DNA from: Tubulanus polymorphus
Taxonomy: Eukaryota; Animalia; Nemertea
Direction of reading: 5' to 3'
NCBI RefSeq assembly: GCF_964204645.1
Contig: NC_134025.1
Span: 15,376,001 to 15,440,000, forward strand
DNA: 64,000 bases
Below the pieces are notes generated by a model that was given only the letters and a program-made list of their open reading frames with translations, had not been told where the DNA came from and made no database searches. The position numbers and the translations under genes are program-made. This document shows positions 12,745 to 45,037 of this stretch, piece by piece (within the stretch, counting starts at the first letter, position 1; every line of letters begins with the position of its first letter).

Positions 12745-13856
12745 ATGAAAAAAGAACAATATTTAAGAGAGTTATATTATAACCCAGAAAGTGAATATTC
12801 TAACGTTTCAGAATTATGGAATAAAATTAAATCTGATAATGAAAATGGGGCCATACGGCACCCACACGGTGATATAAAAATATAGTGAATTAAAATCATG
12901 GTTACAAAATCAACCAACATATCAAATACACAAGAAAATGGATAAAACTTATTTAACAAGAAAAGTTATGGTTTCATATATCGATCAACAATGGCAAGCA
13001 GATTTAATTGACATGAAGAACTTAGAGGAATACAACAAAGGATATTTCTGGATATTAAATGTTATAGACATATTCAGTATATACGCATGGTCAATTCCAA
13101 TCAAAAATAAAACTGGAATAGAAGTAACAAATGCTTTTAAATCTATATTTAAAGAAGCTATTCCAGATAAGATACAATTTGATGAAGGTAAGGAATTCTA
13201 TAACAAACATTTTTAAAAACTATTATCTGATAACGATGTAGATTATTTTTCAACACACTCAGATAAAAAAGCATCTATTATAGAAAGATTTAATAAAACA
13301 TTGAAAACTAGAATGTGGAAATATTTTACTGCTAATGAAACATATATATATATATATCGATGTATTAGATGATTTAGTGAAAGGTTATAATAATTCTAAA
13401 CATAGTTCTATAAATATGAAACCTATACAAGCTAGAAAAGAAGATAATTCAGAAATAGTTTGGAATAATTTATATGGAGCATTTGTTACACACGATTTCG
13501 GAGAACCTAAATTTAAAATAGGACAACACGTCAGAATATCTAAATATAGAAAAACATTTTATAAAGGTTATACCCCTAATTTTACTGAAGAAATATTCAA
13601 GATTAAAAAGATAATATTAACTAAACCTCTTGTTTATAAATTAGAAGATCTAAAAGATGAAGAAATATTAGGTTATTTCTATGAACAAGAATTATCACTT
13701 GTACCAAATCCAGATGAAATAGAATACAAAATAGAAAAAGTGTTGAAAACAAAAACTCTTAAAGCAAAAAAGTATTCTTTGGTGAAATATAAAGGATATG
13801 ATGATAAATTTAATGAATGGATTTTATCTAGTAAAATTAAAAGTATAAATGAATAA
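12745..13856 (+). pseudogene. Retroviral-like (rve) DDE integrase with C-terminal chromodomain, frameshifted
   Basis: QWQADLIDM, IQFDEGKEF, KASIIERFNKTLK. Chromo-like YKIEKVLK..YSLVKYKGYDDKFNEWI. Confidence 0.9.
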
Positions 13857-16705
13857 AGATTTATTTATATTTGAACCGCATAATATGTTAGTTACTGGTG
13901 TAACCAATTGTGGTAAAACACATTTCATATTAGATTTGTTAGAAACTATTTATAAGAATCGTTTTGATAATATAGTATTATTCTGCCCTACTTATGAAAT
14001 GGATAAAACATATAATAGAGACATAGTTAAGATGAAAAAGTTTATTATATTAGATCCTAAACCAGTAAAAGAAAATTTAGATAATTGTATTAAAATAGCA
14101 ATTGATACTTATAAAGGATCAAATACATTATTCATTATAGATGATTGCGCAAATTTACATGATTCAAAAGTGAGAGAAAGTGAGTTATGTTATTTAGCTT
14201 TCTCTGGGAGACATTTTGGGATAACAACATGGGTTTTAAATCAAAAATATAATTCAATTGTTAAAGACTTTAGGGAGAATATAAGATGTCTAGTTTTATT
14301 TTATAACAAAGATAAACAAGAGCCCCAAGGGGCACAATGGCCAGCCTGTCAGATTTGCTTTTTATAAATGATGTAATCTGTGGGTTATATTTATCAATAT
14401 ACACTCCCTGCTCAATATCATTTACATAGTAAAATCGTGTGTTAACACAGACAGCAGGAACGAATGTAATATAGAAATACTAAGTTATTGTATTGTTCAA
14501 CGCCCCCTGGTGGCCATAAAAAAAACCAATGAGCTTGAAACTCACCTCGATCATAGAACATGTCATGAGCTACAACTTTCCAATTGATTATAGTAGCAAA
14601 ATATGCTTAAGTATCAATTATGATGTGGAAAAACTTTTTTTCCACCTACGAATGAGTACTGATGACCCCAAGATGGCTGCCAAGTGCGTCATAATTGCCT
14701 GGTCAAAAATACCCTCTCGGATATAAAAGATCACTTTCCAAAGAATACCCATTACAAATTGCAATGAAACATGGCGCACCATTAGAAAGCTACAGTACTC
14801 AGAATTCAGGCCAAAATTGACATTTTTGGGAACAAAAAAGGTCACAGTACGGCCATCTTGAGTCCGATCGACTCAATTTTTCTCATGCCGATGGGCCCTC
14901 GGGGGATACAAATATATACGAATGATCAAGGTTATTGATAAAAGTGTCTTCAAAATTTTCACTCGAAAACTTCAAAAATGTGTAAAAAGTGCTGATTTTG
15001 GCGAACAACAATGGCTGCCAGTCGGCCATCTTGAATCTGACAGGGCCAGTTTTTGGCCTGAAGATGTGTCTAGGGTAGATACACGTATAAAACAAATATC
15101 AAGACATTACCTTGAAGCGTCTTCAAAACTTTGGAACTCTCACGAACTATCTAGATGGTTATCTCTCGACCTCAATAGCTTCAAGACCCATCTCAAAACA
15201 ACTTTGTTCCATGCAGCATACCATTAACTCTCGGAAAGCGAATTTTATTTAACATTTTTTGGCAGAATAAAATTTGATTGAATTTGCAATTCGGGCACAT
15301 GGCTAATTAGCATATCAAGGTCATACACCCGATTTGGTAAAACCTTTTTTTCGCGAACCTTGCGCAATTGTCAAGGATGAATTTTCTGTAGAGCAAATAA
15401 AAATTCCTCCCAAACACCAAATCAACTAAAGACTTCATAGAAATCGATCTTGAAATACAATTTTAAATCTTAAAATAAAACCCGGAAGTAAAACAGTACA
15501 GTAGACGATACCGCGGATTCACGTGAACACCTGATTTCTGTAAACGAAATGTTGGTTGTGACAAAATTGTTCAGACGGTTTTAGGTGGTAATAAGTACGG
15601 AAACGTAACGACCATGGTCGACTTAACCGATGAAATCAGGCCTATGTGATATCCAAATTTTGACTTTTTTATTCTCCAGACCTCCCTGATATAGAAATAA
15701 AAAATTTTGGTGGTACGAAAGTGCAATCACAGCGCCGACGGGGACAGAGCCGTGTCAGAGATCGGCGGAGTGAAAATTGAGGTGGACGAACATGAAGAAG
15801 TAGGCTATTGCGCTACTTGAATCACGAAAACTCCTGGCGCGGCCCCGACGCTTTTCGTTGATTAAGTAATACAAATATCATGCAATGGGTTTTCACAATC
15901 TACCGCTGCCGTATTTACCGGATTTCAATATCACTCCAAAATTCAAAGAAACCTCGAAATATCGAACCGGAACACTTCCGGTAGATATCCGCGGCTGCCC
16001 AACCGGGAAACTTATTTGTTTCAATAGATATTGATAGGATCCATCATCTTCACCCGTCAAGGGATTCGAACCCACTAAGCTAAAGCAATGCCAGAATCTG
16101 GTCGGGCCAATCACAGCGCTTGTAACAAACCACATTAGGCTTCTGTGGAATTTCCCAGTAAATGGGCCAATCAGCGAACACGTAGCGAACGCGGAAGTAT
16201 TGTCGCGTGTTGATACATGACGTCATGCGCAAAAGCGCCAGTAATGAAATCGCGATAATTCACGTGAACAGCTGCTGATATTTTCAGATAAACCAATCAC
16301 AGGGAAGACACAACTTCCTGATTGGCTGATAAAAATTGAAATTTTCCCGATTTAACTTTCGTGAAAAATGCAGAAAACATTTTTATGAGACCCTATTTCA
16401 AAATTCTGCTCGCTACGATTCCGAGAATGGATTACGCTTAAATACGTGATTTGTTCGGATATGCCCTCACTTGGCAAGCAAAAGAGCCTTTTGTGTGGAA
16501 ACCATGTCATTTAAATTCGCTCCATTTGTATAGTAATAGGCTCAGCCTACGGCTGGCCTAAAAATCTATGCAACAATCATTGGAAGAAAATCAAATTATA
16601 CCTACTGAATTACATGATGAATATATGAATAAATTAAAGAATAATAAAGGTTCAAAATTATTACTGAGATTACAATTTCCCTATGAATATAAGTTTATAA
16701 AATAA
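13849..16705 (+). pseudogene. A32/FtsK-HerA-type packaging ATPase split by the insertion at 14315-16560
   Basis: Walker A GVTNCGKT, Walker B LFIIDD, GRH arginine finger. The reading resumes KSMQQSLEENQ at 16561, contiguous in the copy at about 46465-46611. Confidence 0.9.
14315..16560 (-). mobile_element. Non-autonomous Helentron-like (HINE/DINE-type) element
   Basis: Subterminal inverted repeat GGCCAGCC (about 14339) / GGCTGGCC (16551). Stem-loops GCCCC-AA-GGGGC and CAGCC-TAC-GGCTG. AACAAGAG end, A/T-run target, no TSD. Absent from the ATPase of element B. Confidence 0.7.
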
Positions 16706-16726
16706 CTATTTATATATCTATCTATC

Positions 16727-17002
16727 TAATACGTATTAAATACGTATTAGATACGTATTAAATACATTAATATTTTAAACCCCATTTTTAAAATAAATAT
16801 TATTCATATAATTTTCAACCAATTTATTTTTATCTTTTTCAACTAATATATGAATAAGTTTGAAAATAATAAAGGTTATTTATTATTACTGAGGTTTCAA
16901 TATAAATTTAAAAAAGAAATATAATTTAAGGTATTTTCAAATAATATGTATTAGATACGTATTAGATACGTATTAGATATGTATTAAATACGTATTAGAT
17001 AC
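16727..17002. repeat. Two short arrays of a 10-bp unit ATACGTATTA(G/A) between convergent gene blocks
   Basis: Arrays at about 16727-16770 and 16948-17002. The core ATACGTAT is palindromic. Confidence 0.8.
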
Positions 17003-17061
17003 CTTAATACTTAAAACCCCCTTTTTTATTTACTATTATTTTATACAATTTTCAACCTTTA

Positions 17062-17886
17062 TTACTTTTTGAGTGTTAGATAATCACTTTCTGAATCACT
17101 TTCACTATCAGACCCTAACAATTTATTCAAATGCTCTACCGTATCTTCATAGATAATTGGTTTATTGATATACTTATTAGTCATCTCAACTATATCTTTA
17201 TTTTCTGATTTAAGTTTCATAGAATCTTTATTATCAATGCGCTTTCCTGTATTTTCATTATTATCTTTATTAGTGTTTGCTCCTAATATTTCATATACAG
17301 TGTTTGATCCTAATATTTCATTAGCATCGGTTAGATCTAATTCATCTTTATTAGGTGTTGCTAATAATAAATCTTCATATATTTTTTCACCATTTACTTT
17401 TTGATTTGAAACAAACTTTGTAACATATCTAAATGGGTGTTCTATGAATTCTTTTAAACCAACACGTTCTATAACATTATTTATATGTACCCTTGTATTC
17501 ATATGTTTATTCCAATTTGATGGAGCGTTTGAAAATTCACTTTTACAATATCCACAATAATTTCTATTTTCACTAACATTTAATATTATTTAATTATTAG
17601 ATATAGAAGGTATTACATTATTAGATGTAGAAGGTATTGCATTATTAGAAGTAGAAGGTATTACATTATTAGATGTAGAAGGTATTACATTATTATCAAT
17701 TACATTACTTAAATTATCAACAACACCACTTTTATTATTATCGATTTCTATTAGTTTATTTTTATAAATTTTGAAAATAGGATCAAATATCAAAGCTATA
17801 TTACAAGGTATTACATAATATAAACCATCATTATTTTCATGTGTATCGATGTATGGAATATGTTTATATACTTTACCTCCTTCCAT
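17062..17886 (-). pseudogene. Variable protein Z with C2H2-like zinc finger and SNNVIPST repeats (frameshifted)
   Basis: TAAATG start. ORFs 17590-17886 and 17062-17502, with YCGYC..WNKHMNTRVH between them and 24-bp tandem repeats at about 17595-17700. Confidence 0.55.
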
Positions 17887-17918
17887 TTATATAATAGATA
17901 TTTATTAAAGTTAAAATT

Positions 17919-19167
17919 CTAATACATAACACTATCTAATTGAGAATTTAAATATTTAATTGCGCGTCAGATATAATATAAATGTGCATTTTAAAATTTT
18001 TGTCTCCTCTTTTCTTTTTCATGAATAATTGTATTCCATCTTTAGTGTTCTGTAATTTTTTTCCAGAACCATGTAATGAATTATCCTCTGTTGTTCTAAA
18101 ATCTAACCATAATGCATATTTATTACCGGTATAATAATCAATTTGATTAATGTTACAATTTTCAGATGATTTTACTTTTTCATTCATAAAATGTTTTCTA
18201 ATTTCTGGCCATTGATCAATCATTCTCATTCCTTGACAAAATATTTTATTTGCTATTCCTTCGATAGTTATTTCTACTTTTGTTATTTCAGGATTATAAT
18301 AATTATCAACATTTATTGCGCCATTAGTATATGTTGCAATGGTAAAAAATATTAATATACCTTTAATAGATCTTCTTGGGAAGTTAATATTCTCATTAAT
18401 AATTTCATCATTTGCATTAATAGTTACAGTTTTAAATTTATCAATATAATCATATAATAATGAAAATCCTTGATTGTATTGAGTTTGAATTATACTTGAA
18501 ATATTTTCATCAGTAACTGTATCATATTCTAAACATATATTCGATAATTTATAACTCATATCTTTATTAACGCTAGATAATACGATTTCATTTACAGGAG
18601 CAAATGTTATTTCGAATATAACGTCTTCTTGAATTGCGTATTTATATAAAGGTGCATTGTTATTTATCAATTCAAAGTCTAATGGAATTTTATATTTGCT
18701 TCCATAGATACTTTTTATCAATTTATCTACAGCATTAGTTAATATTGCGCTATTAGCTTCTGATCTTAATTTATTTTGGTTTTCTGATTGGATTCCTTGA
18801 AATATCATATTATTTCTGTTTTCTTTAGTTAACCATAAATCTTTATAATGCATAAATAAATTATAATCATCTAATGAGAAAACTGTTTCTGGACCAATCT
18901 TTATAGTTAATTTTTTAATCAAATATCTTCCAACATTATCAACAACATAATTATTATTATTACCGATTACTTTTATATCGGCTGATAAATAAATACTATT
19001 TGGAACATAAAAAGTATTTTGTGTTAATCGAGGAATTCTAACATATAAAGTTAAGTATCAGGATTAATATTAGAAGGGTTATGAGTAATTATATGATGTG
19101 ATCTTTCTGCTTTAATAGCATTAGATATTCTATGATTCTTAGAAGGATTGATATAACTTCCACTCAT
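17919..19167 (-). pseudogene. Major capsid protein (double jelly-roll), two small frameshifts
   Basis: About 415 codons, beta-rich. HNPSNINP..LYVRIPRL, VGRYLIKKLTIKIG, YKLSNICLEYDTV, NINFPRRSIKGILIFF, ALWLDFRT. Highly conserved with 47614-48834. The fold is inferred from size, pattern and context. Confidence 0.78.
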
Positions 19168-19186
19168 TTATTTAACAAAAAATTAA

Positions 19187-20875
19187 TTATTTATTTTTTG
19201 ATATCATATTTACAAACCCAAAAATAATAGCACTTACAACTGTAATTAAAAATAAAATAATATGTTCAGCAGCAAAGTTAATAATATTCCCAGCAGATTT
19301 CAATATAAAACCAACAATTGATGCAATAATTCCTGGCAATGCTGCAGCAGATTTCTTTGATAGTTCCCATAAATATTTTGCTAATTTCTTTAAACCATCT
19401 TTAACTTTATCTTGTATAGAATTATTATCTGGAGGTTTATCTGGTTTATTGGGAGTAGGAGTAGATTTCAAAGAATTTGATATTGCTAAACCAATTGTTG
19501 TAAATAACATAGTTACAGCTGTTAGAATTGAAAGAATTGTTATACCTTCTAACTTAAATAATAATCTTATTCTGTCTTTTAATGATATTTCAGAATTTGG
19601 TTTTATCAACAAATCTTTAAAGTTTTTAATATGATTAAGATCATATGATTTTAATAATGTATCTCTTTCTTCTTTCTGTAATTCTATATTATATTCTAAA
19701 TCATCTATTTCTTTTTCTAAAGCTAACTTTCTGCTTTCATAATCAGCTTCCTCGATTAATTGAAGATTTTTATCTAATTGTAATTGTTTTAATTTTTCAT
19801 TTGCATTAGCTAATTCTTTTTCTAACATGGTTAGTTTAGAAAATCTCATCTTAATATTAGCAATTTCACCAGCTGATTCTTGCATACCTTTAATTTCTCT
19901 ACGTGCTTTTTCAGGAAATTCTTTTAATTCATCATCAGTTAAATCAAGTAATCCTTTTTCTAGTAAAGATTGTATTCGATTTATTCCAGTTTCAGAACCA
20001 GATGTATCTAAAATACTATTCATCTCTTCTTCTGAATCGCTTAATCTATCAATTTGTCAAATGTTAATTGTAATTGACTTGAATCATTATCAATTGTCTC
20101 TTCTCGATGTTTCGGGTGTTGAAGATCTTAATTTATCTAATCGATTTGCAAAATCTTCAGTTTCTGGATCAACATCATTAGGATTTAAATTTGGATTTTT
20201 AAATGGTGAATCCTTGTTTATATCAATATTAGGAATTGGTTCTTCTTTATTTATTCTGTCGAGTGCATTCCATATAATTCTGAGAAATTCTCTACCACCT
20301 TTTGAACCTTCAATTGTAGATAATGCTCGCATTCCAGGTTCAAAAATATTTTCTTGACCCATTCTAGATAATTGAATTGATACAGTATTCCTATTTAATT
20401 CAAGATTATAATACCATGAATCATTTTTAAATTCTAAATTATTCGTGAAATATGGGTCATCTTTAAAAATTTGTTCTACAACATCTTCAGTATCAATTTC
20501 ATCTATTACAACTTTGGGTAATAATTCGTTAACAATTGTATCTGTTACTCTAGATTTCATTTTATATAATTCCATATGTTTATCAGGATATTTTTCTTGT
20601 TGTTCTACTAATAGTTCCATAAATTCTTTTCTTTCTGTTGTAGTTGCAATTCTACCACTTTCAGGAGCTTGTAAATATTTAATTAATTTTTCACGTAATT
20701 CGGAATTAATTCCATCATAATCATCATCATAATCATCATCTTCACCTTAATTAGTATTATATGCCGTTTTATTATCATTACTGAAACTTGTTTCATCAAA
20801 ATCAGGTTGTTGTTCATCACTTATACCGGGTTCATCTAAAGGATCCATTGGAATATCTTCTCCACCTTCTGCCAT
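19187..20875 (-). pseudogene. Long protein: acidic N-terminus, coiled coil, hydrophobic/amphipathic C-terminus (frameshifted)
   Basis: TAAATG start MAEGGEDIPM at 20875. ORF pieces 20090-20620 and 19187-20023, with hydrophobic EGITILSILTAVTMLF.. and LPGIIASIVGFIL.. Confidence 0.65.
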
Positions 20876-20891
20876 TTACATAATAAAAAAA

Positions 20892-22194
20892 TTAAAATTT
20901 AAAATATAATATTCCTCCGATTACAATTCCTATACAAGTTAAAGCTAATTTAGCATTTTCATGGGATTTATTATCATCATTTAGTTTAATTATTTCATGT
21001 TGAATATTATCAGTTTTTATATTTTCTGATGTATTGTAATCTTTTATTTTAGAATCATTATTTAATCTAATATTCTTAGTTTTAGTTTCTGTTGATTGAA
21101 TATGTTTTTTATTTTTTTCACCTTCCATTAATTTTGGAGCAGTAATAATCTTTTTATTTATATCATTCAATCCAAATGAATTATTTATTGTTGCAGTTTT
21201 AATTAGATTATTATAACCAATTATGTTTCCCATCTTTAATACTAAATCATTAGAAATAATTAACAGATTAGGGCCTATACAATAATTTAATCTAATATGT
21301 GATTTATCTAAATAATTTTGATATCTTACAATGTTTTCCGGAATCGATCTATTTTTATCATTATGAATAGAATCTTCAAATAATACTTTGAATTGTTTAT
21401 GCGCATCGAATGAAGTGTTATCATTTCCAATTATTGGGGATCTTGTTTCAACTTGCGCACCTAGAATACAAATTAAATAAGTTCTAATAGATTGATTTAT
21501 TCTTTGTATACCAGCTTTAGTAAAACCTTCACTATTTTCTAAAATGAAATTAACCCAACCATTATTGTTTTGTTGTTGTATATTATTATAATATTTTGGT
21601 AATTCATTCCAATTTAGTGTTCTTATATCTGAATTTGTCATTATTTTTCCAAATTCTTTAGTATATAATATTCCTAATCCACCCATCTTTATTTGAATTA
21701 ATATTAAATTCATTACATATTTTATAAAACTTAGAAAAATTAATATTATTATTCAATTCTTTAAAATATTTTGAACCTGGTAAGGGAATTTCTAATTCAT
21801 CTAATATTAATTTTATTTGAAAATAAGTATGAAATCTAAAAAGTGATAACATCAATGGTAAACTTGGTTTGTTTAAATAATCATTCCAACTAATTCCACA
21901 TCCTGTTGTTGCACAATAAACAGCAAAATTGAATTGGTTCTGCCAATACTTCATATTAGATTTTAATAACCATTGTTTTGCCTCATTTAAATTTTTGAAA
22001 TTAATTGTATACACATGAAATATATTTTCCAACTTTACATGAAAATTATTACTTTCAGTAACATAAATATATAAATCAATTAATGAATTTAAAACTTCAT
22101 TTCTATATGTAATATCTTTATTAAAATCTATTGCTGGAATATTATATTTAATTGATTTATTATATTGGAAAGCTTTTTGAAAACTATCTGCCAT
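20892..22194 (-). pseudogene. Conserved viral hypothetical protein with C-terminal transmembrane anchor (frameshifted)
   Basis: ORFs 21658-22194 (YWQNQFNFAVYCATTGCGIS) and 20892-21713 (NQSIRTYLICILGAQ) are contiguous in the homologue at 42392-43294. Confidence 0.75.
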
Positions 22195-22210
22195 TTATAT
22201 AATTAAAAAA

Positions 22211-22643
22211 TTAATAATTTATTAATTCTTTTAATAATCTATCTTGTTCTTCAACTGTTATATGGCCATTTAAACTTATTATATAATCTAGTGTTCTTTA
22301 ATTTATTAATTTCTTTTATATTAGTTTTAATTTTTTCTTTATTACTTTTTATATTCAATTTTGAACTTATACCAGTTAAAACACTTGAACTTAATTCTTA
22401 TACACCAATTGATATAGCTAAAGGTGTTAATGGACTGAATATTGCTAGAAATGTTATTACAGAACTAATTGTAACCGAACCACTTATAATCAAATAATAT
22501 ATAATTTTAGATTTTAAATATTTTTTCTTTTTAACTTTTAAGTCACTTTCAAATTCTAATATTTGTTTTTCTAAATATGTTTTTTATTTAGTTTTACTGA
22601 TATCATGAGGAATAATATCAATATTATCAACTTTATCATCCAT
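22211..22643 (-). pseudogene. Two-transmembrane coiled-coil protein (disrupted)
   Basis: Reverse complement matches the intact 144-aa ORF at 41867-42301. Confidence 0.7.
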
Positions 22644-22663
22644 TTATTTAGCAAAAAAAATTA

Positions 22664-23086
22664 CTAATTAGTAAACTTATAAGCAACAAATATAACAATA
22701 ACTGTTCCCCCTAAAATCCAAATTATTTCATATTTCTTCTGTTCATTACTCGGGGTATAATAATCTGATAATTTAGGTTTGTATAGATGTAATTTTTCTT
22801 TATTGGTTACCGCGTTATATAAACTCATTGCATCATCAACTGATTGAAAATCTCTATGTGAAATCTTCTGATCATATAATTCCTTGTTAATATAATCCAT
22901 ATAGTTTTGTCGTTTTTCTCTGTATTCTTCTGCAGCTTTATTGTATTTCTCTAATGCTAAGTTATGTCTTCTTTGTTCTCCTAATGAACTATTTTTATCA
23001 ATATGCTTAAATAAATAACCTCCACCAGTAAATGCTACAGCGTTAAAAATTGCCGATCCTATAATAGTTATAATTGCAGAAGCCAT
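22664..23086 (-). CDS. 140-aa protein with hydrophobic N-terminus and C-terminal transmembrane segment
   Basis: Intact ORF, TAAATG start, near-identical homologue at 41425-41847. Confidence 0.8.
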   Translation of the reverse strand: MASAIITIIGSAIFNAVAFTGGGYLFKHIDKNSSLGEQRRHNLALEKYNKAAEEYREKRQNYMDYINKELYDQKISHRDFQSVDDAMSLYNAVTNKEKLHLYKPKLSDYYTPSNEQKKYEIIWILGGTVIVIFVAYKFTN

Positions 23087-23110
23087 TTATTTAGCAAAAA
23101 AATTATGCAA

Positions 23111-23332
23111 TTATATGGGAGGAATATATTTTTGTTTTTCTAAATAATCAATAGTTAAATTAGATAAAGTAACTGCTAATGTTAATTTTAAAATATCATT
23201 TATATCAAATCTATCAACATTAACACTTCCCATTTTGAATACTTTTTTTAATACCATTGAATAACCAATAGTTCCAACTGATAGTAATGCGCCATTATAT
23301 AATCCAGTTATTATCCACTTATTATCACTCAT
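23111..23332 (-). CDS. 73-aa hydrophobic viral protein
   Basis: Differs by one residue from 41180-41401. Confidence 0.8.
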   Translation of the reverse strand: MSDNKWIITGLYNGALLSVGTIGYSMVLKKVFKMGSVNVDRFDINDILKLTLAVTLSNLTIDYLEKQKYIPPI

Positions 23333-23689
23333 TTATTTATCAAAAAAATTACTATCATCAAAATATTTAGTTATCTTATTTATGATTAATTCAACATTTA
23401 TTTCATTACTAGTTTCATTTGTATATATTTCAATTATTATTTTTTTAATATCATCGATGATAAAATCTTCATCTAATTCATAAAATCTTAAAGATTCTCT
23501 AATTAAATTAGTAATCTTTTCTACATTTAAAGTTTCTTTATCTATTGTTGTTTCATACTCAAATGTTGTTTCATTAGAAAATGCAATATTTTTGATATGT
23601 GTAATTACATCATTAATGTTAAATTTCATTTCTTTCTCACGTTTAAAATCAAATCCAAAACATATACTCGGTCCAACAGTTATATTCAT
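23333..23689 (-). CDS. 118-aa hypothetical viral protein
   Basis: Shares both ends (MNITVGPSICFGFDFK, YF.DSNFFDK) with 40913-41179. Confidence 0.7.
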   Translation of the reverse strand: MNITVGPSICFGFDFKREKEMKFNINDVITHIKNIAFSNETTFEYETTIDKETLNVEKITNLIRESLRFYELDEDFIIDDIKKIIIEIYTNETSNEINVELIINKITKYFDDSNFFDK

Positions 23690-23704
23690 TTATATAATGA
23701 AAAA

Positions 23705-24460
23705 TTACTCTCTACATCTTATAACTAATTCATATATCACAGGAAAGTTATTCAAATCAATTAAATAACCATTATGATTTCTTATTTCTAATTTAAAATT
23801 ATTGAAATGTGGAATACAAGGTTTAAAATCACATTCAGTTAAATTATAATTTATTTGAGTTCCAAATTGTTTAACATTTTTTAATGGTAAAATATTTAAT
23901 ATACTAGAATTACAAATTGTATCTTTAGTTGCTTCAAATGTTTTTGTAGGATTAATTAAATTGCAATAAATATAAAAGTGTGTAAAAGTCATTATATTTG
24001 TATAAGTTTCGATACTTGAATAATGTCTATCCGGAAGAATTCCAAACAGTTTAGCTAAAGGTTTTCTTACTAGAAATCTATGTTGTTCATTAGTTAACTT
24101 TATTCTTATTTTATTCGAACTATCATTTTTGATAAATTTAATTTCAAATCAAGCAGCTGAGCCCATTTTTAAACGAGCTCTTTTATTAATTTCTTGCGCT
24201 AATGTTTCTAAATTATATAATCCTGGTTTTAGATAAAGATGAAACCATTTATTCAAATTTCTAACATAAATTTTAAAAGCTAAATGATCAAGAGTTTTAT
24301 TCGATATATTAAAAAAAGAATTACATAAACTTATATTAACTAATTTTAAATCAACACAATTCTTAAATTCTCTATCTAATTGAACTAGTAAATTATGTGA
24401 TTTATAATTTGTAAGTTTTCTAGAATCAACAAATATTCTGTATTCTTTTAATTCTACCAT
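23705..24460 (-). pseudogene. Minor capsid (penton-like) protein, frameshifted
   Basis: N-terminal YRIFVDSR, internal SFFNI and LKPGLYNL, HFYIYCNLI, C-terminal FKLEIRNHNGYLIDLNNFPVIYELVI. These match my recollection of Polinton mCP patterns. Confidence 0.75.
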
Positions 24461-24477
24461 TTATTTTACATATTTTC

Positions 24478-24831
24478 TTATTCGAAATCTATTTCATGGT
24501 GCCCTTTTTCATTCTTACCTTTGTATACGAAATAGAAATCACCAGAACATAATTGTTCTAGATCTTCACTTGATAATCTATGAAATCTATCCGGTAAATA
24601 TGTTCTGAATTTATATGTATTTCCTTTTAATCCTTCATATTCTAAGTGTATAACTAATTTATCTCCATATTTGTTAGTAACTGTATCAATATTTGTAATT
24701 AGATATTTCTTATGGATTATTAATTCTTTTAACTTCTTAAATTCATAATCTACTGATTTGACATTTGAAGTATCTTTTATTCTATCTAGAAATGATTTGT
24801 TGTTCTCACTGTGCGCTTGTTTACTCTCCAT
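24478..24831 (-). CDS. 117-aa protein next to pPolB, putative OB-fold ssDNA-binding protein
   Basis: Intact. FKKLKEL..KKYLI..TNKYGDKLVIHL..TYLPDRF. Homologues at 30852, 34666 and 39790. The function is inference only. Confidence 0.6.
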   Translation of the reverse strand: MESKQAHSENNKSFLDRIKDTSNVKSVDYEFKKLKELIIHKKYLITNIDTVTNKYGDKLVIHLEYEGLKGNTYKFRTYLPDRFHRLSSEDLEQLCSGDFYFVYKGKNEKGHHEIDFE

Positions 24832-24856
24832 TTATAATACATATTTTTATTAAAAT

Positions 24857-27800: not shown

Positions 27801-28895
27801 ATCAAATACATTTATCTTCATATTATTATCTCTTTCTATTTTTGGGATGTTTTTAATTATAACAGGATACTTATCTATCTTATAATTATTTTTAAATGGT
27901 TTATAATGAGTTAATCTAAAACTATGTGTAATATCTTCTGTTGGATGTAAACAACTTATTATAGCCCATAGAAAACATTTATCATCTTTATTTTGTACAT
28001 TTATAACAGCATTAGTTTTAAATGGTAGTTTAATATAACTTGATGCTTCAATATCTGGTTCTTTATAATATGATACATTATTTTCATCAATTGGTTTTGA
28101 TTTAGTTAACTTATTATATTTTGTGTTATAAACATGTAAAGTCATAAATATTATTTCATCGAATATTAAACCTGATCCCTCAAAATATTTCTCTTCTATT
28201 TTAGTTTTTACTTCATTATAACATTTATCTAATTTATCATCTATATGTTGTTTATATATAATATGTTGTGAATGAGAATTTATATTATATATTGGTTTAT
28301 CTTCAGATTTTATAAACTTTACTTTAACTGATATACTAATTTTAGGGTATTCAACATCTATTATTATTTTTATTATTTCTTTCATATTTTCTAAATGTTT
28401 TTTATTTTCTTCTAATGTTTTTCCTTTATGAAATTTAAACTCGATAGCTGCTGGGCCAATATCACTTTTAAATGCTTCGGTTATCTCTATATCTTTTTTA
28501 TTATCTAATGAATTAATATAATTTCTTACATCTTCCATGTATGGTCTTTTATTGTTTAATTTATTTTTTATGCTTTTAATTGTCTTCTGTTTCTTATCAT
28601 TATCTTTATCAAAATAATCTTCACCTAAAATATCATTATTTATATTTCTTATATGACTTTTAGATTTTAAATGTTCTTTATAATATATTTTATCACTGAA
28701 TGATTGATTACATGTATCACATTTGTATGTTTCTTTTTCATTGTTTAATTCATCTAATTTAGTTTCTAATATATCATCTTTATATTCTAGTTTCAATTTA
28801 TTCTCTGAATGTGTTTTAGTTTTATCATGTCTTGATTTTTGGGATTTATCTATATTGATATTACATGTTGGACAGTAGTACTTATTTGCTTCCAT
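24857..28895 (-). pseudogene. Protein-primed family B DNA polymerase (pPolB) with N-terminal zinc fingers and an endonuclease VII-like insert; several frameshifts
   Basis: ExoI FVIYGDFES, CYYC..VRDHDHLNGKFRGAAHENC, ExoII FHNLSGYDAH, ExoIII YLKSDVLLL, PolA DANNLYGWAM, PolB KLMNNAFYGK, PolC YFDTDS. Confidence 0.93.
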
Positions 28896-35250: not shown

Positions 35251-35253
35251 TAA

Positions 35254-36022: not shown

Positions 36023-36116
36023 TAACGAGAACTGCTTTTTGCAGGGGGAAGCTGACCGCGCTCATATGATCCAGGTTCATTTAATTGTTTAATGAATGAA
36101 TTTTTTTCCCTAATAA

Positions 36117-38567
36117 ATGGGAGGCAGTGAGTACCAGACTGAAAAAATGATGTTTAATGAAAATCAATATTATTGTACATATTGTAAAAAATACATTGAA
36201 AAATCTCATAAATCTCGGCATGAAAAAACTGCAAATCATAAAAAAAATGTTATAGATTTTGAAACTCCAGAAAATTCCAATGAAAGAAAAGAACATTTAG
36301 AAAATATGAATGTGGATGAAATAAAATGTGAAGTTTGTAATGAATTTATAGCAAAAAGGAATTATACAAGACATCTTGAATCGCAAAAACACAAAACAAA
36401 ATTTAAGTAATTAATGTTTGAGGAACAGATTATTTTGATGATAAACCAGTAAAGAGTAAACAAGTAAAAAAAACAGTTTCAAAAACTAAATCTATTTCAA
36501 ATAAACCTTATATGGAAAATGTTAGAAATTATATTGATTCACTAGAAATAAAAGATACAATTGAAATTTTAGAAACATTACGCAGTAAAATTGGGCCTGC
36601 AGCTATTATGTTTAGATTTTTTAAAGGCGCAACAATAGAAGATTATAGCAAATATATTGAAATAATGGAAAAAATAATGGACCTTGTAACAGAAGTTGAA
36701 TATCCAAAAATTAATATTTTTGGAAAAGTAAGTTTTATAAAATCAGAAGTAAAAATGGAGTATAATATTCAAACACATTCTGAAGAAATAATTTCAAAAA
36801 CACAAATAAAAGCGAAATAAGAAAAAATATGTAATGAATTTAAACGACATATCGAAGAAAGATATTTTGAGGGTTCTGGCTAATCATTAAATGAAATTAT
36901 ATTTTTAGATTTAAATGTTTATAATACAAAAAGGAATAAAGCATCAAAAAGTAAAACAATGTTTAAAAATGATTCAACCTTTACAACAGAAAAGGATATT
37001 AAAGCATCATCTTATATTAAATTACCATTTACAACAAAAGCAGTAATAAATGTTCAAAATGAAGATAATAAATGTTTTCTACGGTCAATTATTAGTTATT
37101 TACACCCAAAAGAAGATATTACGCATAGTTTTAGGATAATAGATTACCGGAAATATGAAACATTATATAAAATTGAGCAATATCCAGTAACTATAAAGAT
37201 GATTGCTAAAATAGTAAAGTTAATAATTTAAAAATTAATGTTTTCGAATTAAAGCAATTACCAGAGACAAAAGGTGAAAATATTAAAGATTATACATTAG
37301 AAGCTTTATATTTAACAGAATATTATGATGATGAAAATGTTATAGATTTGTTATATTACAAAAAAGATGAAAATGAACATTTATATGTGGTTAAAACAAA
37401 TTGATTTATTCTTTAGAACAGAAAGTGATCATCATCGTAAAATTTATCTATGTAGAAAATGTTTATCTAAATTTATGACTGAGAATGCATTATTAAAACA
37501 TAAAGAATTTTGTGATAATAAAGATTCTTGCAAATTAATGATGCCAACAGAAAAAGATTATACATTGAAATTTACTAATCATAAATTTAAGAATATAGTG
37601 CCATTTGTAATTTATGGGGATTTTGAATTGTTGAATAAAGAATTAACTGATCAAGATAGAAAAGAAATATATAACAAAAAGCAATTTTTAAAATCAATGG
37701 ATAAAGGAAATGAACTAAATGAAGATATAATTCAAGAACCGCAAATTATAAATACAATTAAAAAAAGTTCATCAAAGAGCTGCTGCTTATGGAATTTATG
37801 TAAAGTCAAATTATCCTGAATTATATGAAAGTCAATATATTTCTTTTAGAGGTGAAGATGTAGTTAATGATTTTTGTAATAAAATAATTGAATTAGAAAG
37901 TGATTTTGCAAAATTATTCAACAAAAATAAAAGAATAGTTATGACAAAAGAAGATGAAATTGATTTTAATAATGCAACTCATTGTTGTTATGTGAAAAAC
38001 GTTTTTATTCATTTGACAAAAGAGTTAGAGATCATGATCATTTAAATTCAAAATATCGTGGAGCTGCTCATGAAGATTGTAATTTACATGCTAAAAAAGT
38101 AAATTTCGTACCAATATTATTTCATATATCAGGGTATGATACCCACTTATTTATAAAACAATTATCAGAAAAATTAGGTGCAAATTATCAAGAAATAGAA
38201 GAATATAATGCTATGAATGGTGCAAATGTAAGAAAATATGATTTTAAACTATTAGCTAAAACATCTGAAAATTATATTTCATTTCAATTTGGTTGCATTA
38301 GATTTTTAGATTTTTGTAATAACTCGACATTATTACCCAAATGAACAAGATTATAAATCATTGAGATATAAAGGCGCAATTCCTTATTTATTTTATAAAA
38401 CACATGATGATTTTAATGTAACAGAATTATTAAAAGAACAAGTTTATGATCAATTAAAAGAGGACTATGTGAAAGATGTGAAGTTTTTAATAGAACATTA
38501 AATATTTGGAATCATTTTTAGATAGAAAATCATGGTGAATTAGTAGATTTATACTTAAAATCAGATA
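36117..38567 (+). pseudogene. Divergent pPolB, N-terminus through exonuclease domain, many stops and frameshifts
   Basis: YYCTYC, SSYIKLPF, VQNEDNKCF, FVIYGDFE, VRDHDHLNSKYRGAAHEDCN, LYLKSD. Colinear with 28895-26450. Confidence 0.88.
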
Positions 38568-39013
38568 AATGAAGAAACCCCACACTTCGAATTTGAAATT
38601 ATACGATCAAATTTATTATTACGAAACCACAACGTTTCGGATGTTGACTAACAGCAGTAATAGAGGTTTAGTTGGTTCAGGCCAAAGGTCGAAAGGTCGA
38701 GCTCGTAAAAAATGAAAAACATGAAAATAATAACAATTTCTACTTGAATTAGTCGCGAAACTCATAAAAATGAAAAATAATCCTCGCACGCTCGAATTTA
38801 TTTTCTATTTTTACTCGCTAAAAAAGTAACGAGTAATTAACGAGTTGTTAGAATTGATATTTTAAACATATTTCAATATTTATATTTGTATGAGCTAGAT
38901 TTTTAAACATTAAAAGTGTGAGTAAAGTGTGAGTGAAATAATTCATATTTAAATCATTGAATATTTATATTTATATGCGTTGGATTCATTTTAATAAAAG
39001 TTTTGTTAATAAA

Positions 39014-39760
39014 ATGAAGAAAGAAGAAGAACCTAAATTCAAAATCGAAATAAAAGAAACCAATAAATTATTTTCACAGTTTAACATTAGAAATTATATT
39101 TCAGCAACAAATTTAGTGTATACAAGGTATTATAAAATCGATAACATTACTATGATTAATCAAATATCATCAGATGAAACATATTTAATTACTGAACTAA
39201 TTGATACTTTTGATAATGGTGTTAAAAATGGTGTTAAACACATATTAAAGATAAAAACTAATAACATAACAGATGATTTAAAAACATTAAAACATCATTT
39301 TGATTTCAGTAACTATCCTAAAGATCATGAATTGTTTAGCAATGATAATAAAAAGCGACCCGGTAAATTCAAGGATGAATTAGGTGGTGAAAAAATGATT
39401 GAATTCATTGGTATTAGATCTAAAATGTATAGTTATAAAACTAAAACTCATGAATCTAAAAAGTTAAAAGGAATTACCAAAAACGTTGTTGAAAAGAATA
39501 TTCATTTCAAAGATTACATCAATTGTATATTCAATGAAGAAGTTAGAAAACATAAGATGAGATGTTTAAGATCTGAAGATCATGAAATGTTTATTGAAGA
39601 AATTGAAAAGGTTAGTCTAAACCCATTTGATGATAAAAGATATATTTTAGATGATGGAATTCATACAGTTGCATATGGTTGTAATTTAGATGAATACTTA
39701 AAATTTAAAAGAGAAGAAACAAAAGAGAAGGAAATAATGAACAGGAATATAACATGTTAA
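39014..39760 (+). CDS. In-frame fusion of an unassigned N-terminus to the pPolB C-terminal part
   Basis: TAAAATG start at 39014. From ILKIKTNNITDDL (about 39243) it matches pPolB downstream of DTDS (GKFKDE, RSKMYS, LNPFDDKRY). Confidence 0.7.
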   Translation: MKKEEEPKFKIEIKETNKLFSQFNIRNYISATNLVYTRYYKIDNITMINQISSDETYLITELIDTFDNGVKNGVKHILKIKTNNITDDLKTLKHHFDFSNYPKDHELFSNDNKKRPGKFKDELGGEKMIEFIGIRSKMYSYKTKTHESKKLKGITKNVVEKNIHFKDYINCIFNEEVRKHKMRCLRSEDHEMFIEEIEKVSLNPFDDKRYILDDGIHTVAYGCNLDEYLKFKREETKEKEIMNRNITC

Positions 39761-39789
39761 TCAAATTTTAATAAAAATATGTATTATAA

Positions 39790-40143
39790 ATGGAGAGTAA
39801 ACAAGCACACAGTGAGAACAACAAATCATTTCTAGATAGAATAAAAGATACTTCAAATGTCAAATCAGTAGATTATAAGTTTAAGAGATTAAAAGAATTA
39901 ACAATCCATAAGAAATATCTAATTACAAATATTGTTACAGTTACTAACAAATATGGAGATAAATTAGTTATACACTTAGAATATGAAGGATTAAAAGGAA
40001 ATAAATATAAATTCAGAACATATTTACCAGATAGATTTCATAGATTATTAAGTGAAGATCTAGAAGAATTATGTTCAGGTGATTTCTATTTCATATATAA
40101 GGGTAAGAATGAAAAAGGACACCATGAAATAGATTTCGAATAA
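39790..40143 (+). CDS. 117-aa SSB-like protein
   Basis: Near-identical to 24478-24831. Confidence 0.7.
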   Translation: MESKQAHSENNKSFLDRIKDTSNVKSVDYKFKRLKELTIHKKYLITNIVTVTNKYGDKLVIHLEYEGLKGNKYKFRTYLPDRFHRLLSEDLEELCSGDFYFIYKGKNEKGHHEIDFE

Positions 40144-40157
40144 AATATGTAAAATAA

Positions 40158-40896
40158 ATGGTAGAATTAAAAGAATACAGAATATTTGTTGATTCAAGAA
40201 GACTTACAATTTATAAATCAAATAATTTACTAGAACAATTAGATAGAGAATTTAAGAATTTTGTTGATTTAAAATTAGTAAATATAAGTTTATGTAATTC
40301 TTTTTATAATATATCGGATAAAAGTGTTGAATATAGAGTCACGATAGAAATAAGAATAAATGTTTCATCTTTATCTAAAACCAGGATTATATAATTTAGA
40401 TACATTAGCTCAAGAAATTAATAAAAGAGCACGCTCAAAAATGGGTGTATCTGCTGGATTTGGATTAAGACTTATTAAAAGTGATAGCTCCGATAAAGTG
40501 AGAATAAAATTAGGCAATGAAGATCAACATCAATTTCTAGTTAAAAAACCTTTAGCTAAAATTTTAGGAATAACCCCAGATGTAAGGATACGTAATGCTA
40601 CAAACTTAATACCTTTTACACACTTTTATATTTATTGCAATTTAATTGATCCTACAAAAACATTCGAAGCAACTAAAGATATAACTTGTAATTCTGGTTT
40701 ATTAAACATTTTACCATTGAAGAATGTTAAAGAATTTGGAACGCAAATAAATTATAATTTAACAGAATGTGATTTCAAACCATGCATTCCTCAATTTAAT
40801 AATTTTAGATTAGAAATTAGAAATCACAATGGATACTTAATTGATTTAGATAATTTCCCTGTAATTTATGAATTAGTTATAAGATGTAAAGAATAA
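40158..40896 (+). pseudogene. Minor capsid (penton-like) protein, one frameshift
   Basis: ORFs 40158-40394 and 40360-40896 are homologous to 23705-24460, with a divergent middle. Confidence 0.75.
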
Positions 40897-40912
40897 TTTT
40901 TTTGATATATAA

Positions 40913-41179
40913 ATGAATATAACAGTAGGGCCGAGTATATGTTTTGGGTTTGATTTTAAACATGGTAATAAAGAAAATTATAATAAAGGAAAAGTAATTG
41001 ATTTAATTAAAACGCCTTTAGAATATTATGAATTAAATGAAGATGGAATTATTGACGATATTAAAAACATATTATCCAAAATATATGATAATCATAAAAG
41101 TAGTAATGAAATAAATGTTGAAATAATCATAACTAAGATAACTAAATATTTTGAAGATAGCAATTTTTTTGATAAATAA
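40913..41179 (+). CDS. 88-aa hypothetical viral protein
   Basis: Homologue of 23333-23689, shorter internally. Confidence 0.7.
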   Translation: MNITVGPSICFGFDFKHGNKENYNKGKVIDLIKTPLEYYELNEDGIIDDIKNILSKIYDNHKSSNEINVEIIITKITKYFEDSNFFDK

Positions 41180-41401
41180 ATGAGTGATAATAAGTGGATA
41201 ATAACTGGTTTATATAATGGAGCATTACTATCAGTTGGAACTGTTGGTTATTCAATGGTATTAAAAAAAGTATTCAAAATGGGAAGTGTTAATGTTGATA
41301 GATTTGATATCAATGATATTTTAAAATTAACGTTAGCAGTAACTTTATCTAATTTAACAATTGATTATTTAGAAAAACAAAAATATATTCCTCCTATATA
41401 A
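41180..41401 (+). CDS. 73-aa hydrophobic viral protein
   Basis: Homologue of 23111-23332. Confidence 0.8.
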   Translation: MSDNKWIITGLYNGALLSVGTVGYSMVLKKVFKMGSVNVDRFDINDILKLTLAVTLSNLTIDYLEKQKYIPPI

Positions 41402-41424
41402 ATGCATAATTTTTTGCTAAATAA

Positions 41425-41847
41425 ATGGCTTCTGCAATTACAACTATTATAGGATCGACAATTGTAAACGCGTTAGCATTTACTGGTGGCGGTTATTTAT
41501 TTAGGCATATTGATAAAAATGGTTCATTATCAGAACAAAAAAGACATAACTTAGCATTAGAGAAATACAATAAAGCTGCAGAAGAATATAGAGAAAAGAG
41601 ACAAAACTATATGGATTATATTAACAAGGAATTATATGATCAGAAGATTTCACATAGAGATTTTCAATCAGTCGATGATGCAATGAGTTTATATAACGCA
41701 GTAACCAATAAAGAAAAATTACATCTATTCAAACCTAATTTATCAGATTATTATACCGCAAGTAAAGAACAACAGAAATATGAAATAATTTGGATTTTAG
41801 GTGGAACAGTTATTGTTATATTTGTAGCATATAAATTTACTAATTAG
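41425..41847 (+). CDS. 140-aa membrane protein
   Basis: Homologue of 22664-23086. Confidence 0.8.
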   Translation: MASAITTIIGSTIVNALAFTGGGYLFRHIDKNGSLSEQKRHNLALEKYNKAAEEYREKRQNYMDYINKELYDQKISHRDFQSVDDAMSLYNAVTNKEKLHLFKPNLSDYYTASKEQQKYEIIWILGGTVIVIFVAYKFTN

Positions 41848-41866
41848 TAATTTCTTTGCTAAATAA

Positions 41867-42301
41867 ATGGATGATAAAGTTGATAATATTGATATTATTC
41901 CTCATGATATAAATAAAACTAAATTAAAAATATATTTAGAAAAACAAATATTAGAATTTGAAAGTGACTTAAAGATAAAAAAGAAAAAATATTTAAAAAG
42001 TAAAATTATATATTATTTTATTATCAGTGGTTCAGTTACAATTAGTTCTGTAATAACATTTTTAGCAATATTCAGCCCATTAACACTTTTAGCTATATCA
42101 ATTGGCGTGTTAGGATTAAGTTCAAGTGTTTTAACCGGTATAAGTTCAAAATTAAATATAAAAAGTAATAAAGAAAAAATTAAAACTAATATAAAAGAAA
42201 TTAATAAATTGAAGAATACACTAGATTATATAATAAGTTTAAATGGTCATATAACAGTTGAAGAACAAGATAAATTATTAAAAGAATTAGTTAATTATTA
42301 A
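41867..42301 (+). CDS. 144-aa two-transmembrane coiled-coil protein
   Basis: Hydrophobic IIYYFIISGSVTISSVITFLAIF and LTLLAISIGVLGLSSSVL segments. Confidence 0.75.
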   Translation: MDDKVDNIDIIPHDINKTKLKIYLEKQILEFESDLKIKKKKYLKSKIIYYFIISGSVTISSVITFLAIFSPLTLLAISIGVLGLSSSVLTGISSKLNIKSNKEKIKTNIKEINKLKNTLDYIISLNGHITVEEQDKLLKELVNY

Positions 42302-42391
42302 TTTTTTAATTATATAAATTGGGTTTCCAAAAGCTTTCCAATATAATTAATCAATTAGTGATAAATTTGATAGTATAATTTCAAATTCGAA

Positions 42392-43432
42392 GTGTGGGAT
42401 TTCTTCATTTATTTACCATTGATGTTATCTGTTTTTAGATTTTATACATATTTTCAAATAAAATTAATATTAGATGAATTAGAATGTCCTTTACCAGGTT
42501 CAAAATATTTTAAAGAATTGAATTATAATATTAATTTTTCTAAGTTTTATAAAATATGTAATGAATTTAATATTAATTCAAATAATGAATTTAGAGCAAA
42601 AATTGGAACAATGGGTGGATTAGGAATATTATATACTAAAGAATTTGGAAAAATGATGACAAATACAGATATAAGAACACTAAATTGGAATGAATTACCA
42701 AAATATTATAATAATATACAACAAGAAAACAATAATGGTTGGATTAATTTTATTTTAGAAAATAGTGAAGGTTTTACTAAAGCTGGAATACAAAGAATAA
42801 ATCAATCTATTAGAACTTATTTGATATGTATTTTAGGCGCGCAAGTTGAAACAGGATCACCAATAGTTGGAAATGATAACACTTCATTTGATGCGCAGAA
42901 ACAATTTAAAGTATTATTTGAAGATTCCATTCGTAATGATAAAAATAGATCGATTCCAGAAAACATTGTAAGATATCAAAATTATTTAGATAAATCACAT
43001 ATTAGATTAAATTATTGTATAGGCCCTAATCTATTAATTATTTCTAATGATTTAGTATTAAAGATGGGAAATATAATTGGTTATAATAATCTAATTAAAA
43101 TTGCACTAATAAATAATTCATTTGGATTAAATGATATAAATAAAAAGATTATTACTGCTCCAAAATTAATGGAAGGTGAACAAAATAAAAAACATATTCA
43201 ATCAACAGAAACTAAAACTAAGAATATTAAATTAAATAATGATTCTAAAATAAAAGATTACAATACTACAGAAAATGGTGCCGTACGGCACTGACACGGT
43301 GATATAAAAACTGATAATATTCAACATGATATAATTAAAACTGATAATGATAATAAATCCCATGAAAATGTTAAATCAGCTATAACTTGTATAGGAATTG
43401 TTATAGGAGGAATATTATATTCTAAATTTTAA
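42392..43432 (+). pseudogene. Homologue of 20892-22194, 5' deleted, with a stop inside a 27-bp insert
   Basis: The 300-aa ORF ends at a TGA within GGTGCCGTACGGCACTGACACGGTGAT, and homology resumes in frame afterwards. Confidence 0.75.
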
Positions 43433-43448
43433 TTTTTTAATTATGTAA

Positions 43449-44140
43449 ATGGATGTAGAAGGTGGAGAAGATTATGAAATGGGAGAAATGGGAAATAATA
43501 ATGAAGTGTATATTGATGATGATTATAATGATGCAGAAACTAATATTGATAATGATGATGAATCAGCATATAATTCTAGTTTAACAGATAGTGGTTCTAA
43601 AGGCCAATCAACAGATGAATTTGATAGAAGAACTAAATCGAGAATAAACCCTGAGAATGAAAATCCAGATTTAGTAAAAAAAGATTAGAATATAATGATT
43701 ATATTTATAAATTCAAACCTGTATTTGAAAGATCTGGATATAATATAAATTATAGAGGCGCCAGACTTTTAGTAGAAGATTTAGAATTTTTAGATGGTGA
43801 ATATCATTATCATTTGAAAGATGATTATAATATTAATATCTCTTATAAAAATCAAAACAAAATATTAGCAGAATCAACTTTGAGTAATAGTAATGAAATA
43901 GAAAATGTTACCGACACAGAAATATATCAAAATAGAAGAGTATTTAAACAAAGAATTAATGATTTATTTGAAACAATCAATAATAATTTAGAACCAGAAA
44001 GAACTTCTGAACAGAATATAACTTCCAAAACTAGTAAACTTAAATCAAATAAAGTACCAATTGAAAAACGTTTACCAAATGGATTACTTGATGCAACAGA
44101 TCAAGAATTAGAAGATTTAAATATATTTTCTGATACTATT
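43449..44140 (+). pseudogene. Divergent N-terminal part of the long acidic protein, truncated at a rearrangement junction
   Basis: MDVEGGEDYEM resembles MAEGGEDIPM (20875). GLLDATDQELE resembles GLLDLTDDELK. Same position after the preceding gene. Confidence 0.6.
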
Positions 44141-44583
44141 TATATTGTAAGCACCATCTAGAACTATTGACTGCTGGAGAGAAATCTAAAGATTTCTTGG
44201 GAAAAATAATAACTTTTCAAGAATTAGACTCTATGAAACCAGATAAAGTAATAAAATATTTTAAGAGTTATGAAGAGGCAAGATTGGCTCGAATAAATGA
44301 TTCTATTGCAGATGGTATTGTCAAATGTTATTCAAAATTATGTAACCGGTTAATGTCAATTGATGATGAAAATAAATTATATAGTGATTTGAAAAATGAC
44401 TATTTAGTTATGACTGAATTACAAAAATGGATCGGATATGCTTCATTCCAATTAGGATCGGTTATGACATTAATTTCTACTGGTGTCATAACATTTTCGA
44501 ATATCAAACCTATGGAATATAAATCAGGTAAGAACGAAACAGATGAGGCCGTAAGACACCCAAACGGTGAAACAGAAAATTAA
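44140..44583 (+). pseudogene. Protein X, 5'-truncated
   Basis: DNA matches about 11903 onward (TATTTATATTGTAAGCA.CATCTAGAACTATTGA). Confidence 0.7.
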
Positions 44584-44608
44584 TCAGAACAAAAATTAAC
44601 TAAAATAA

Positions 44609-45037
44609 ATGAGTGATGATGTTGCCATACGGCACCCACACAGTGACGTTAAGAAAAAGGCTAGATCAGAGAAACAAATTAAATGGGCAAGAGAATTAGG
44701 TAAAAGATCTTCAGAATTAAAAAGAGCTAGGAAAAAGAAATTAATTGATATAAATGAATCACAGAAATTATCTGATATTGATTCAAATAACAATCCATCT
44801 GATTCTTCTAATAGTGGAAGAAATAATTACTTATATATTACAATTGGGTTAATCACAATTATTATATTCTCTGGCGTAATATATAAATCAAAATTCAAAT
44901 ATGATGATAAAGATGATTCCAATGATAATAAACCTTTCATACCAGAAAATAAATCAAATCATGCGTTTCAGAATTATGGGATAAAATTAAATCTGACAAA
45001 GAAAATGGTGTCGTATGGCACCCACATGGTGATATGA
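44609..45037 (+). CDS. Protein Y, 3' end altered by a deletion into the integrase start
   Basis: Homologue of 12369-12686. Near 44960 it jumps to sequence matching about 12805. Confidence 0.65.
   Translation: MSDDVAIRHPHSDVKKKARSEKQIKWARELGKRSSELKRARKKKLIDINESQKLSDIDSNNNPSDSSNSGRNNYLYITIGLITIIIFSGVIYKSKFKYDDKDDSNDNKPFIPENKSNHAFQNYGIKLNLTKKMVSYGTHMVI

Follow-up and report, generated by a model that had tools for sequence, protein, structure and literature searches.

How does one short piece of GC-rich DNA come to lie in frame inside genes that are not homologous to each other? The question is raised by a 64,000-bp window of the genome of the nemertean Tubulanus polymorphus (NC_134025.1, positions 15,376,001 to 15,440,000), in which two decayed copies of a Polinton family, elements A and B, carry five copies of a 27-bp unit with a palindromic core. 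The unit is a real, derived and, as far as seen, family-restricted micro-insertion present at five sites in five genes, four of them filled within the window and the fifth filled in sequencing reads of the same species.

A 27-bp unit is inserted in frame in unrelated Polinton genes

An earlier note, made from the sequence alone, had placed five copies on the sense strand in one reading frame. All five were recovered (12847, 43277, 44545, 44621 and 45007), on the + strand only, and a search to 9 mismatches revealed nothing else. The copies differ from the motif of that note by 2 (12847), 2 (43277), 3 (45007), 4 (44621) and 6 (44545) mismatches. With up to 3 mismatches allowed, the motif has 3 matches in the window and 0 in 100 shuffles, and in 200 shuffles of the Polinton DNA the sequence nearest to copy 12847 is still at least 10 mismatches away. 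With up to 9 mismatches allowed, the host DNA of the window (approximately 28 kb) contains 0 copies, compared with five in approximately 30 kb of Polinton DNA. Sense orientation and a shared reading frame hold for 5/5 window copies.

Two of the copies are orthologous. The copy at 12847..12873 (+) lies in the N-terminal loop of the integrase of element A (peptide GAIRHPHGD), in a gene that is frameshifted directly downstream, and its counterpart at 45007..45033 (+) lies in the integrase of element B (GVVWHPHGD), which is missing 106 bp including the integrase start. Counting this pair once, as a single inherited site, leaves four independent sites in the window, in four non-homologous genes. 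The copy at 43277..43303 (+) is located in gene 42422, in the linker before a C-terminal hydrophobic helix, and contains a 14-bp perfect palindrome and a stop codon. The copy at 44621..44647 (+) is positioned four codons past the start of gene 44609 (VAIRHPHSD), with a 3-nt repeat at its ends. The most diverged copy, at 44545..44571 (+), belongs to gene 44233, where it falls within a variable C-terminal tail (EAVRHPNGE) and is flanked by an 8-nt direct repeat. A structure model of the integrase was unusable (mean predicted local distance difference test score, pLDDT, of 50), with the unit in coil between two helices at a pLDDT of about 45.

The copies rank among the few GC islands in elements of 23–24% GC. 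Across 21 open reading frames (ORFs) of element A, GCC accounts for 1/111 Ala codons and CGG for 0/126 Arg codons. Such foreign codons indicate that the unit is copied DNA of foreign make-up, and rule out a convergent peptide. The unit has a single palindrome, of 16 bp, which overlaps a weaker alternative stem. The full 16 bp described in the earlier note are found in none of the window copies, the longest perfect palindrome being 14 bp (43278–43291). At position 43292, however, 65/70 reads agree with the other four window copies, which shows that the family does contain the 16-bp form.

Empty sites and outgroups give the direction of change

When aligned, A and B are separated by two clean gaps of 27 nt, one at B 43275 / A 21022 and the other at B 44620 / A 12380, in agreement with the empty sites that had been proposed near 21020 and 12369. 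The first is an empty orthologous site in gene 20892–21713 of element A (21016..21027, − strand), empty as well in the related locus L008 and in the homologues P0121–P0125; the second lies in gene 12369 (12369..12392, +), as seen from the A/B alignment and close loci. The degenerate orthologue suspected at about 12308 was also found: judged by its alignment to B 44545, from which it differs by a 3-nt shortening, A 12305..12331 (+) is a decayed copy of the unit and not an empty site.

At the integrase site, the unit is absent from the DNA of 6/6 close loci, about four of them independent. The integrase loop has a modal length of 25 residues (41/106 homologues covering the loop) versus 34 in the unit-bearing integrase, and 12/106 carry at least 5 extra residues of their own, so this loop tolerates insertions. 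The unit peptide is found in 0 of the 120 integrase homologues listed (of 2659 hits). For gene 20892/42422, 5/6 homologues (74–81% identical) align across the site and have no unit, and L008 is likewise empty; the sixth is too distant for alignment at the site, and the peptide is absent there too. A search for the peptide in related proteins, as the earlier note had suggested, returned the motif in 0/206 proteins fetched. Because close relatives (about 75–83% identical) are empty at both the integrase and 43277 sites, the unit was inserted there and not lost. These comparisons support a derived, dispersed, in-frame insertion. At 44621, insertion is likely but less certain.

Beyond these relatives, the unit was sought more widely. 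A scan for the exact motif returned none in JGI metagenomes, IMG/VR or GTDB genomes. A fuzzy scan of 80 related loci (80 of 96 confirmed, 308 kb) gave two matches only, L030:916 and L073:234 (7 and 8 mismatches), both in distant integrase loci and probably due to chance. Searching IMG/VR with the integrase gave 10 candidates, 0 of which were confirmed as relatives, and none of 7 candidates was a homologue of gene 44609. A single Rfam match on 43200–45100 (E 0.12) was below cut-off and away from the unit. We found no description of such a unit in Polintons in a literature search by title and start of abstract, with most subscription journals, supplements and repeat libraries (Repbase) outside its reach. 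The available part of a Polinton-virus paper mentions palindromes at termini only (10.64898/2026.07.28.741278).

Reads of the same species reveal many family copies and a fifth gene

Four sequencing runs contain part of the stretch; all belong to one study and none is an RNA run. A raw-read run with the same species label from a separate study (X5) yielded 14,952 reads on 42400–46400 from about 12% of the run, indicating that the Polinton family has many copies. The unit is present in these reads, which rules out an assembly artefact. It is carried by tens to hundreds of reads at four sites and occurs in many family copies, at a frequency that differs by site. Frequencies derived from depth are rough, as sequence divergence can also lower depth. 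At the 43277 unit, X5 depth is 70 at 43292 versus 250 at 43371 and 687 at 43107, and at the 44621 unit it is 57–64 at 44645–44647 versus 443 at 44730. The 44545 unit is covered by 370 reads at 44554, of which 253 agree with the other copies at this position and about 91–96 have 12 letters missing. No 27-nt skip was found at 43275 in the X5 alignment; clean gaps of this length seem to escape the read alignment, so the screen of 16600–25400 described below gives a lower bound.

The tail of gene 44233 varies among family copies. Contigs of runs X1 and X2 join a unit-like end to this tail, and a shorter tail without the unit is present in 8 X5 reads and one X2 contig. The tail variants are a probable further filled/empty pair.

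A screen of X5 on 16600–25400 (8.8 kb, 34,753 reads) revealed a new site; the result is a lower bound, from 12 of 68 rows and 15 of 37 joints listed. A joint at 17251, where A is empty (17246..17256, − strand), is supported by 8 reads from 4 starts, and holds a 33-nt in-frame insertion in ORF 17062–17502. The insert matches copy 12847 at 25/27 positions (by eye, from the letters of 4 of the 8 reads), lies on the sense strand of the ORF in the same frame as the window copies and has six further letters. The six-letter word before it is also the word before the integrase and 43277 copies. ORF 17062 is not alignable to outgroups at this site, which has 6 extra nt. Neither outcome that the earlier note named as counting against an insertion has come about: the reads add another filled/empty site, and the alignable outgroups are empty at the integrase and 43277 sites.

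Junctions differ between sites

The earlier note had suggested a 2-bp AT duplication. An AT repeat is present at the junctions of 12847, 45007 and 43277, that is, at two of the four sites in the window; the repeat is 3 nt at 44621 and 8 nt at 44545, where the flanks read by eye have a period of 33 nt. The insertion at 17251 is also 33 nt long, which makes two sites with a span of 33 nt. From a transposase one expects duplications of a single length, but not from copying between short shared words. The differences from site to site thus favor template switching at microhomology over a transposase with a fixed duplication.

We suggest, at about even odds, that the hairpin unit moves between sites as a copy, through template switching or microhomology recombination between copies resident in the same genome, and that only harmless in-frame positions then pass a filter. 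The insertions would have arisen in replicating elements, because two sites are common to A and B and the unit is found in tens to hundreds of reads at four sites. Replication by pPolB is protein-primed and strand-displacing, so that a palindrome can fold in the single strands laid bare; a pPolB gene is present in the host elements. While the viral polymerase copies single-stranded DNA, it could switch at short shared words. The nascent strand would quit the acceptor at a word of the GAWRAT type and copy the unit from a filled donor, and the folding palindrome would then free the nascent strand to re-anneal at a match of 2–8 nt. The unit would be kept only where nine added residues are harmless. 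From frequency and decay, the 44545 and integrase sites, both shared by A and B, may have been filled first, then 43277 and 44621, and then 17251.

Strand and frame could follow from the target word. A GAWRAT left word is found at 4/5 sites, and 68% of GAWRAT words are sense and in frame 0 among stop-free options. With this word, the chance of the frame lock is 0.14–0.21. Since such words are mostly sense and in frame 0 in linkers rich in Glu, Asn and Asp, the peptide would need no function to explain the strand and frame of the copies. The fuller proposal, that a 27-nt selfish hairpin parasitises the Polinton lineage, has no enzyme of its own, is spread by viral replication and is kept in frame by its length and target words, is one we hold tentatively, at somewhat less than an even chance.

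Several observations weigh against this account. The copying step is a reconstruction. Predicted hairpins of the five copies have only modest stability (−2.7 to −6.0 kcal/mol, with z-scores between −0.7 and −2.3). By hand count, the 20 differences from the motif in six copies fall at 8 in 12 stem, 5 in 4 loop and 7 in 11 tail positions, so that there is no clear stem constraint in these changes, 7 of which are CpG-type transitions. The GAWRAT word was picked after the sites were known, and 44545 misfits it; for a plain target between A and T, the frame lock has a chance probability of 0.005 (four sites) or 0.001 (five sites) and would need peptide selection. The known 21020 site is absent among the 12 of 68 rows listed in the 16600–25400 screen. 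Polarity is also uneven: at the 44621 site L001 and L002 start short, like A, while the starts of L003 and L008 are longer and unrelated, the empty 12380 site of A deviates from a clean pre-insertion site, and the tail around 44545 is not alignable to outgroups.

Alternative origins of the unit

An enzyme could instead have made the insertions, the unit being a 25-bp non-autonomous element with an AT duplication, comparable to the yeast mitochondrial cluster GC42 with its AG repeat, and moved by the Polinton integrase, an HNH-like protein of the Polinton, or a transposase of the host (rolling-circle or DNA type). One AT is indeed present in the empty state and two in the filled state at the integrase and 43277 sites, and element A contains a 2.2-kb insertion whose hairpin ends we take to be HINE-like. 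The unit has no terminal inverted repeats, nor the TC...CTRR ends that we take to mark Helitrons, and the junctions at 44621, 44545 and 17251 are of other kinds. GC42 is described as having 2–3 nt flanking repeats together with filled and empty sites (PMC4478555). The orientation of the Polinton unit is always sense although ATAT is a symmetric word, and we consider an enzyme-made insertion unlikely. A source in the host appears considerably less likely again: a micro-repeat found throughout the host genome, or what is left of the end of a host transposon, would also have hit the Polintons, where only harmless in-frame hits were amplified. The GC content and codons of the unit are foreign to the Polinton, and the 2.2-kb insertion in A terminates in a short hairpin of similar kind, yet the host DNA of the window, nearly as long as its Polinton DNA, is without a copy.

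Selection for the peptide itself is improbable, though marginally less so than that host source. In such a case A[VI]RHP[HN]G[DE] would be useful and its copies kept as a binding or cleavage site in several viral proteins. One frame is used out of the five (of six) that are stop-free, several changes are silent or conservative (Gly GGT/GGG, Arg CGG/AGA, Asp/Glu), and the 44545 form is common in the reads (370 covering 44554). Silent changes nevertheless make up just 7/20 by hand count, the motif is missing from every one of the 206 related proteins, the unit is in the minority at both 43277 (70 reads vs 250–687 nearby) and 44621 (57–64 vs 443), and the target word can account for the frame. 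We know of no motif that fits the unit peptide. An ancestral unit, removed from A and other copies by deletion between the short repeats at its ends, is very hard to believe. The empty 12380 site of A is one change from the deletion product of the filled site in B, and a local secondary loss there is possible; every alignable outgroup is nevertheless empty at the integrase and 43277 sites, and ancestry leaves near-identical DNA in five unrelated genes unexplained.

Comparison with known palindromic elements

Rickettsia palindromic elements are palindromic DNA inserted in frame in unrelated proteins; they are about 150 bp long and also common between genes. The earlier note had named them as the analogue, and in-frame insertion in unrelated proteins is common to both; they are bacterial and several times longer than the unit. 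In size and make-up, the mitochondrial GC clusters are the closer analogue. The yeast clusters (GC42; var1) are likewise described as short GC-rich palindromes in an AT-rich genome, flanked by short repeats, present or absent at homologous sites, inserted in frame in a gene, and of unsettled mechanism (PMC4478555, PMC8811140). The Polinton unit differs in being 27 nt long and viral rather than in mitochondrial DNA, in that its known copies are all coding and in one frame, and in its varying junction repeats and lack of a visible stem constraint. Mitochondrial hairpin repeats (Allomyces double-hairpin elements, and those of sponges and placozoans) are described as presumably mobile elements of 10–100 bp that multiply both between and within genes and vary among closely related organisms (PMC7813641). 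Those repeats are organellar, whereas the unit is found in Polinton genes and has a single 16-bp palindrome with a weaker alternative stem. Being viral and not in an organelle genome, the unit is a member of neither mitochondrial group.

Submariner, a miniature inverted-repeat transposable element (MITE) of Pandoravirus salinus, is a non-coding, near-palindromic repeat that has spread in a DNA virus, with 10/30 copies coding and an empty paralogous site, according to the text available (PMC4495683). Its length of 243 bp, terminal inverted repeats of about 100 bp, fixed TA duplication and known transposase family have no counterpart in the unit. Membership among MITEs, given there as 100–600 bp with TA/TAA duplications, is ruled out, as the unit is 27 nt long with a palindrome at one end only and variable junctions (PMC4495683). 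The Helentron-associated HINE/DINE-1 elements likewise have short palindromes near their ends and leave no target modification; as described, they depend on T-rich targets and on inverted repeats in subterminal position, and their length far exceeds that of the unit (PMC4067079). Helitron/HINE membership is ruled out by the ends and flanks of the unit, with a target reading between A and T possible at the two AT sites only.

How tiny GC-rich hairpins spread is presented as unsettled in mitochondria in the available text (PMC4478555). The Polinton family replicates with one polymerase only and has left numerous integrated copies in the same host, and so offers a ready series of filled and empty sites, in which template switching could be weighed directly against enzyme-made duplication. 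The sites also provide markers for ordering subfamilies, and the unit a route for viral proteins to acquire one peptide repeatedly. If the proposal is true, the unit would be a viral counterpart of the mitochondrial GC clusters, among the smallest self-spreading units in a virus, and would have added the same nine residues to unrelated viral proteins.

Host elements and neighboring features

Element A (9778..29326) is a decayed Polinton-like element encoding pPolB, an rve integrase with a chromodomain, an A32-type ATPase and a capsid candidate, with inverted ends. Element B (36080..48834, ends approximate) is a rearranged and decayed member of the same family. The two are about 88–95% identical over most shared blocks and 71% over the N-terminal and middle pPolB block. 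Domain matches identify pPolB (PF03175, E 1.4e-07, above cut-off, on 26128–27144), the integrase (PF00665, E 6e-10; the chromodomain match is weak and below cut-off) and the A32-type packaging ATPase (PF04665, E 2e-11). The capsid candidate is a lead only: Atlas matches of 0.96–0.98 point to viral clusters with Capsid_NCLDV/Capsid_N on 10–18% of members, recognition is 1745 (<2300) and there is no Pfam match. The terminal inverted repeats of A pair arms 10241–10633 with 28657–29042, and its ends match at 9778 and 29326. A 6-bp target duplication of A was not found, the flanks differing at the presumed ends; element A may be composite, or its ends misplaced. The window DNA around the Polintons carries retroelement genes, which marks the host as a eukaryote; integrase matches named in a nemertean, a coral and a spider make an animal likely.

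The ATPase gene of A is interrupted at 14315–16560 by the 2.2-kb insertion, which is absent from B. It begins with a short palindrome and finishes with a GC-rich hairpin and an A run; the end hairpin resembles the core of the unit, and the insertion as a whole looks like a non-autonomous Helentron. A different GC-rich hairpin with 11-bp arms lies at 9953–10001, within the left end of A, and was not seen in B or the aligned right end, where alignment is poor. Inside the capsid candidate, at 18517–18523, an inverted repeat of 34 nt with 16-bp arms and a step back of 7 nt occurs in five X5 reads and may be a collapsed remnant of a DNA transposon. An ORF of A at 11006–11518 has no Pfam match and has matching DNA in L001 and L003; by its motif we take it to be HNH-endonuclease-like.

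Two short pieces at 30767–31252 and 34588–35066 are 91% identical and possibly a miniature derivative; each opens on a Polinton-end-like word, after which comes a small ORF with related DNA in L008. The gene order of A and B breaks at 44120–44135, where many read ends are loose, and L008 has another order. Between the converging gene blocks of A, 16708–17013 contains two 11-bp repeat arrays.

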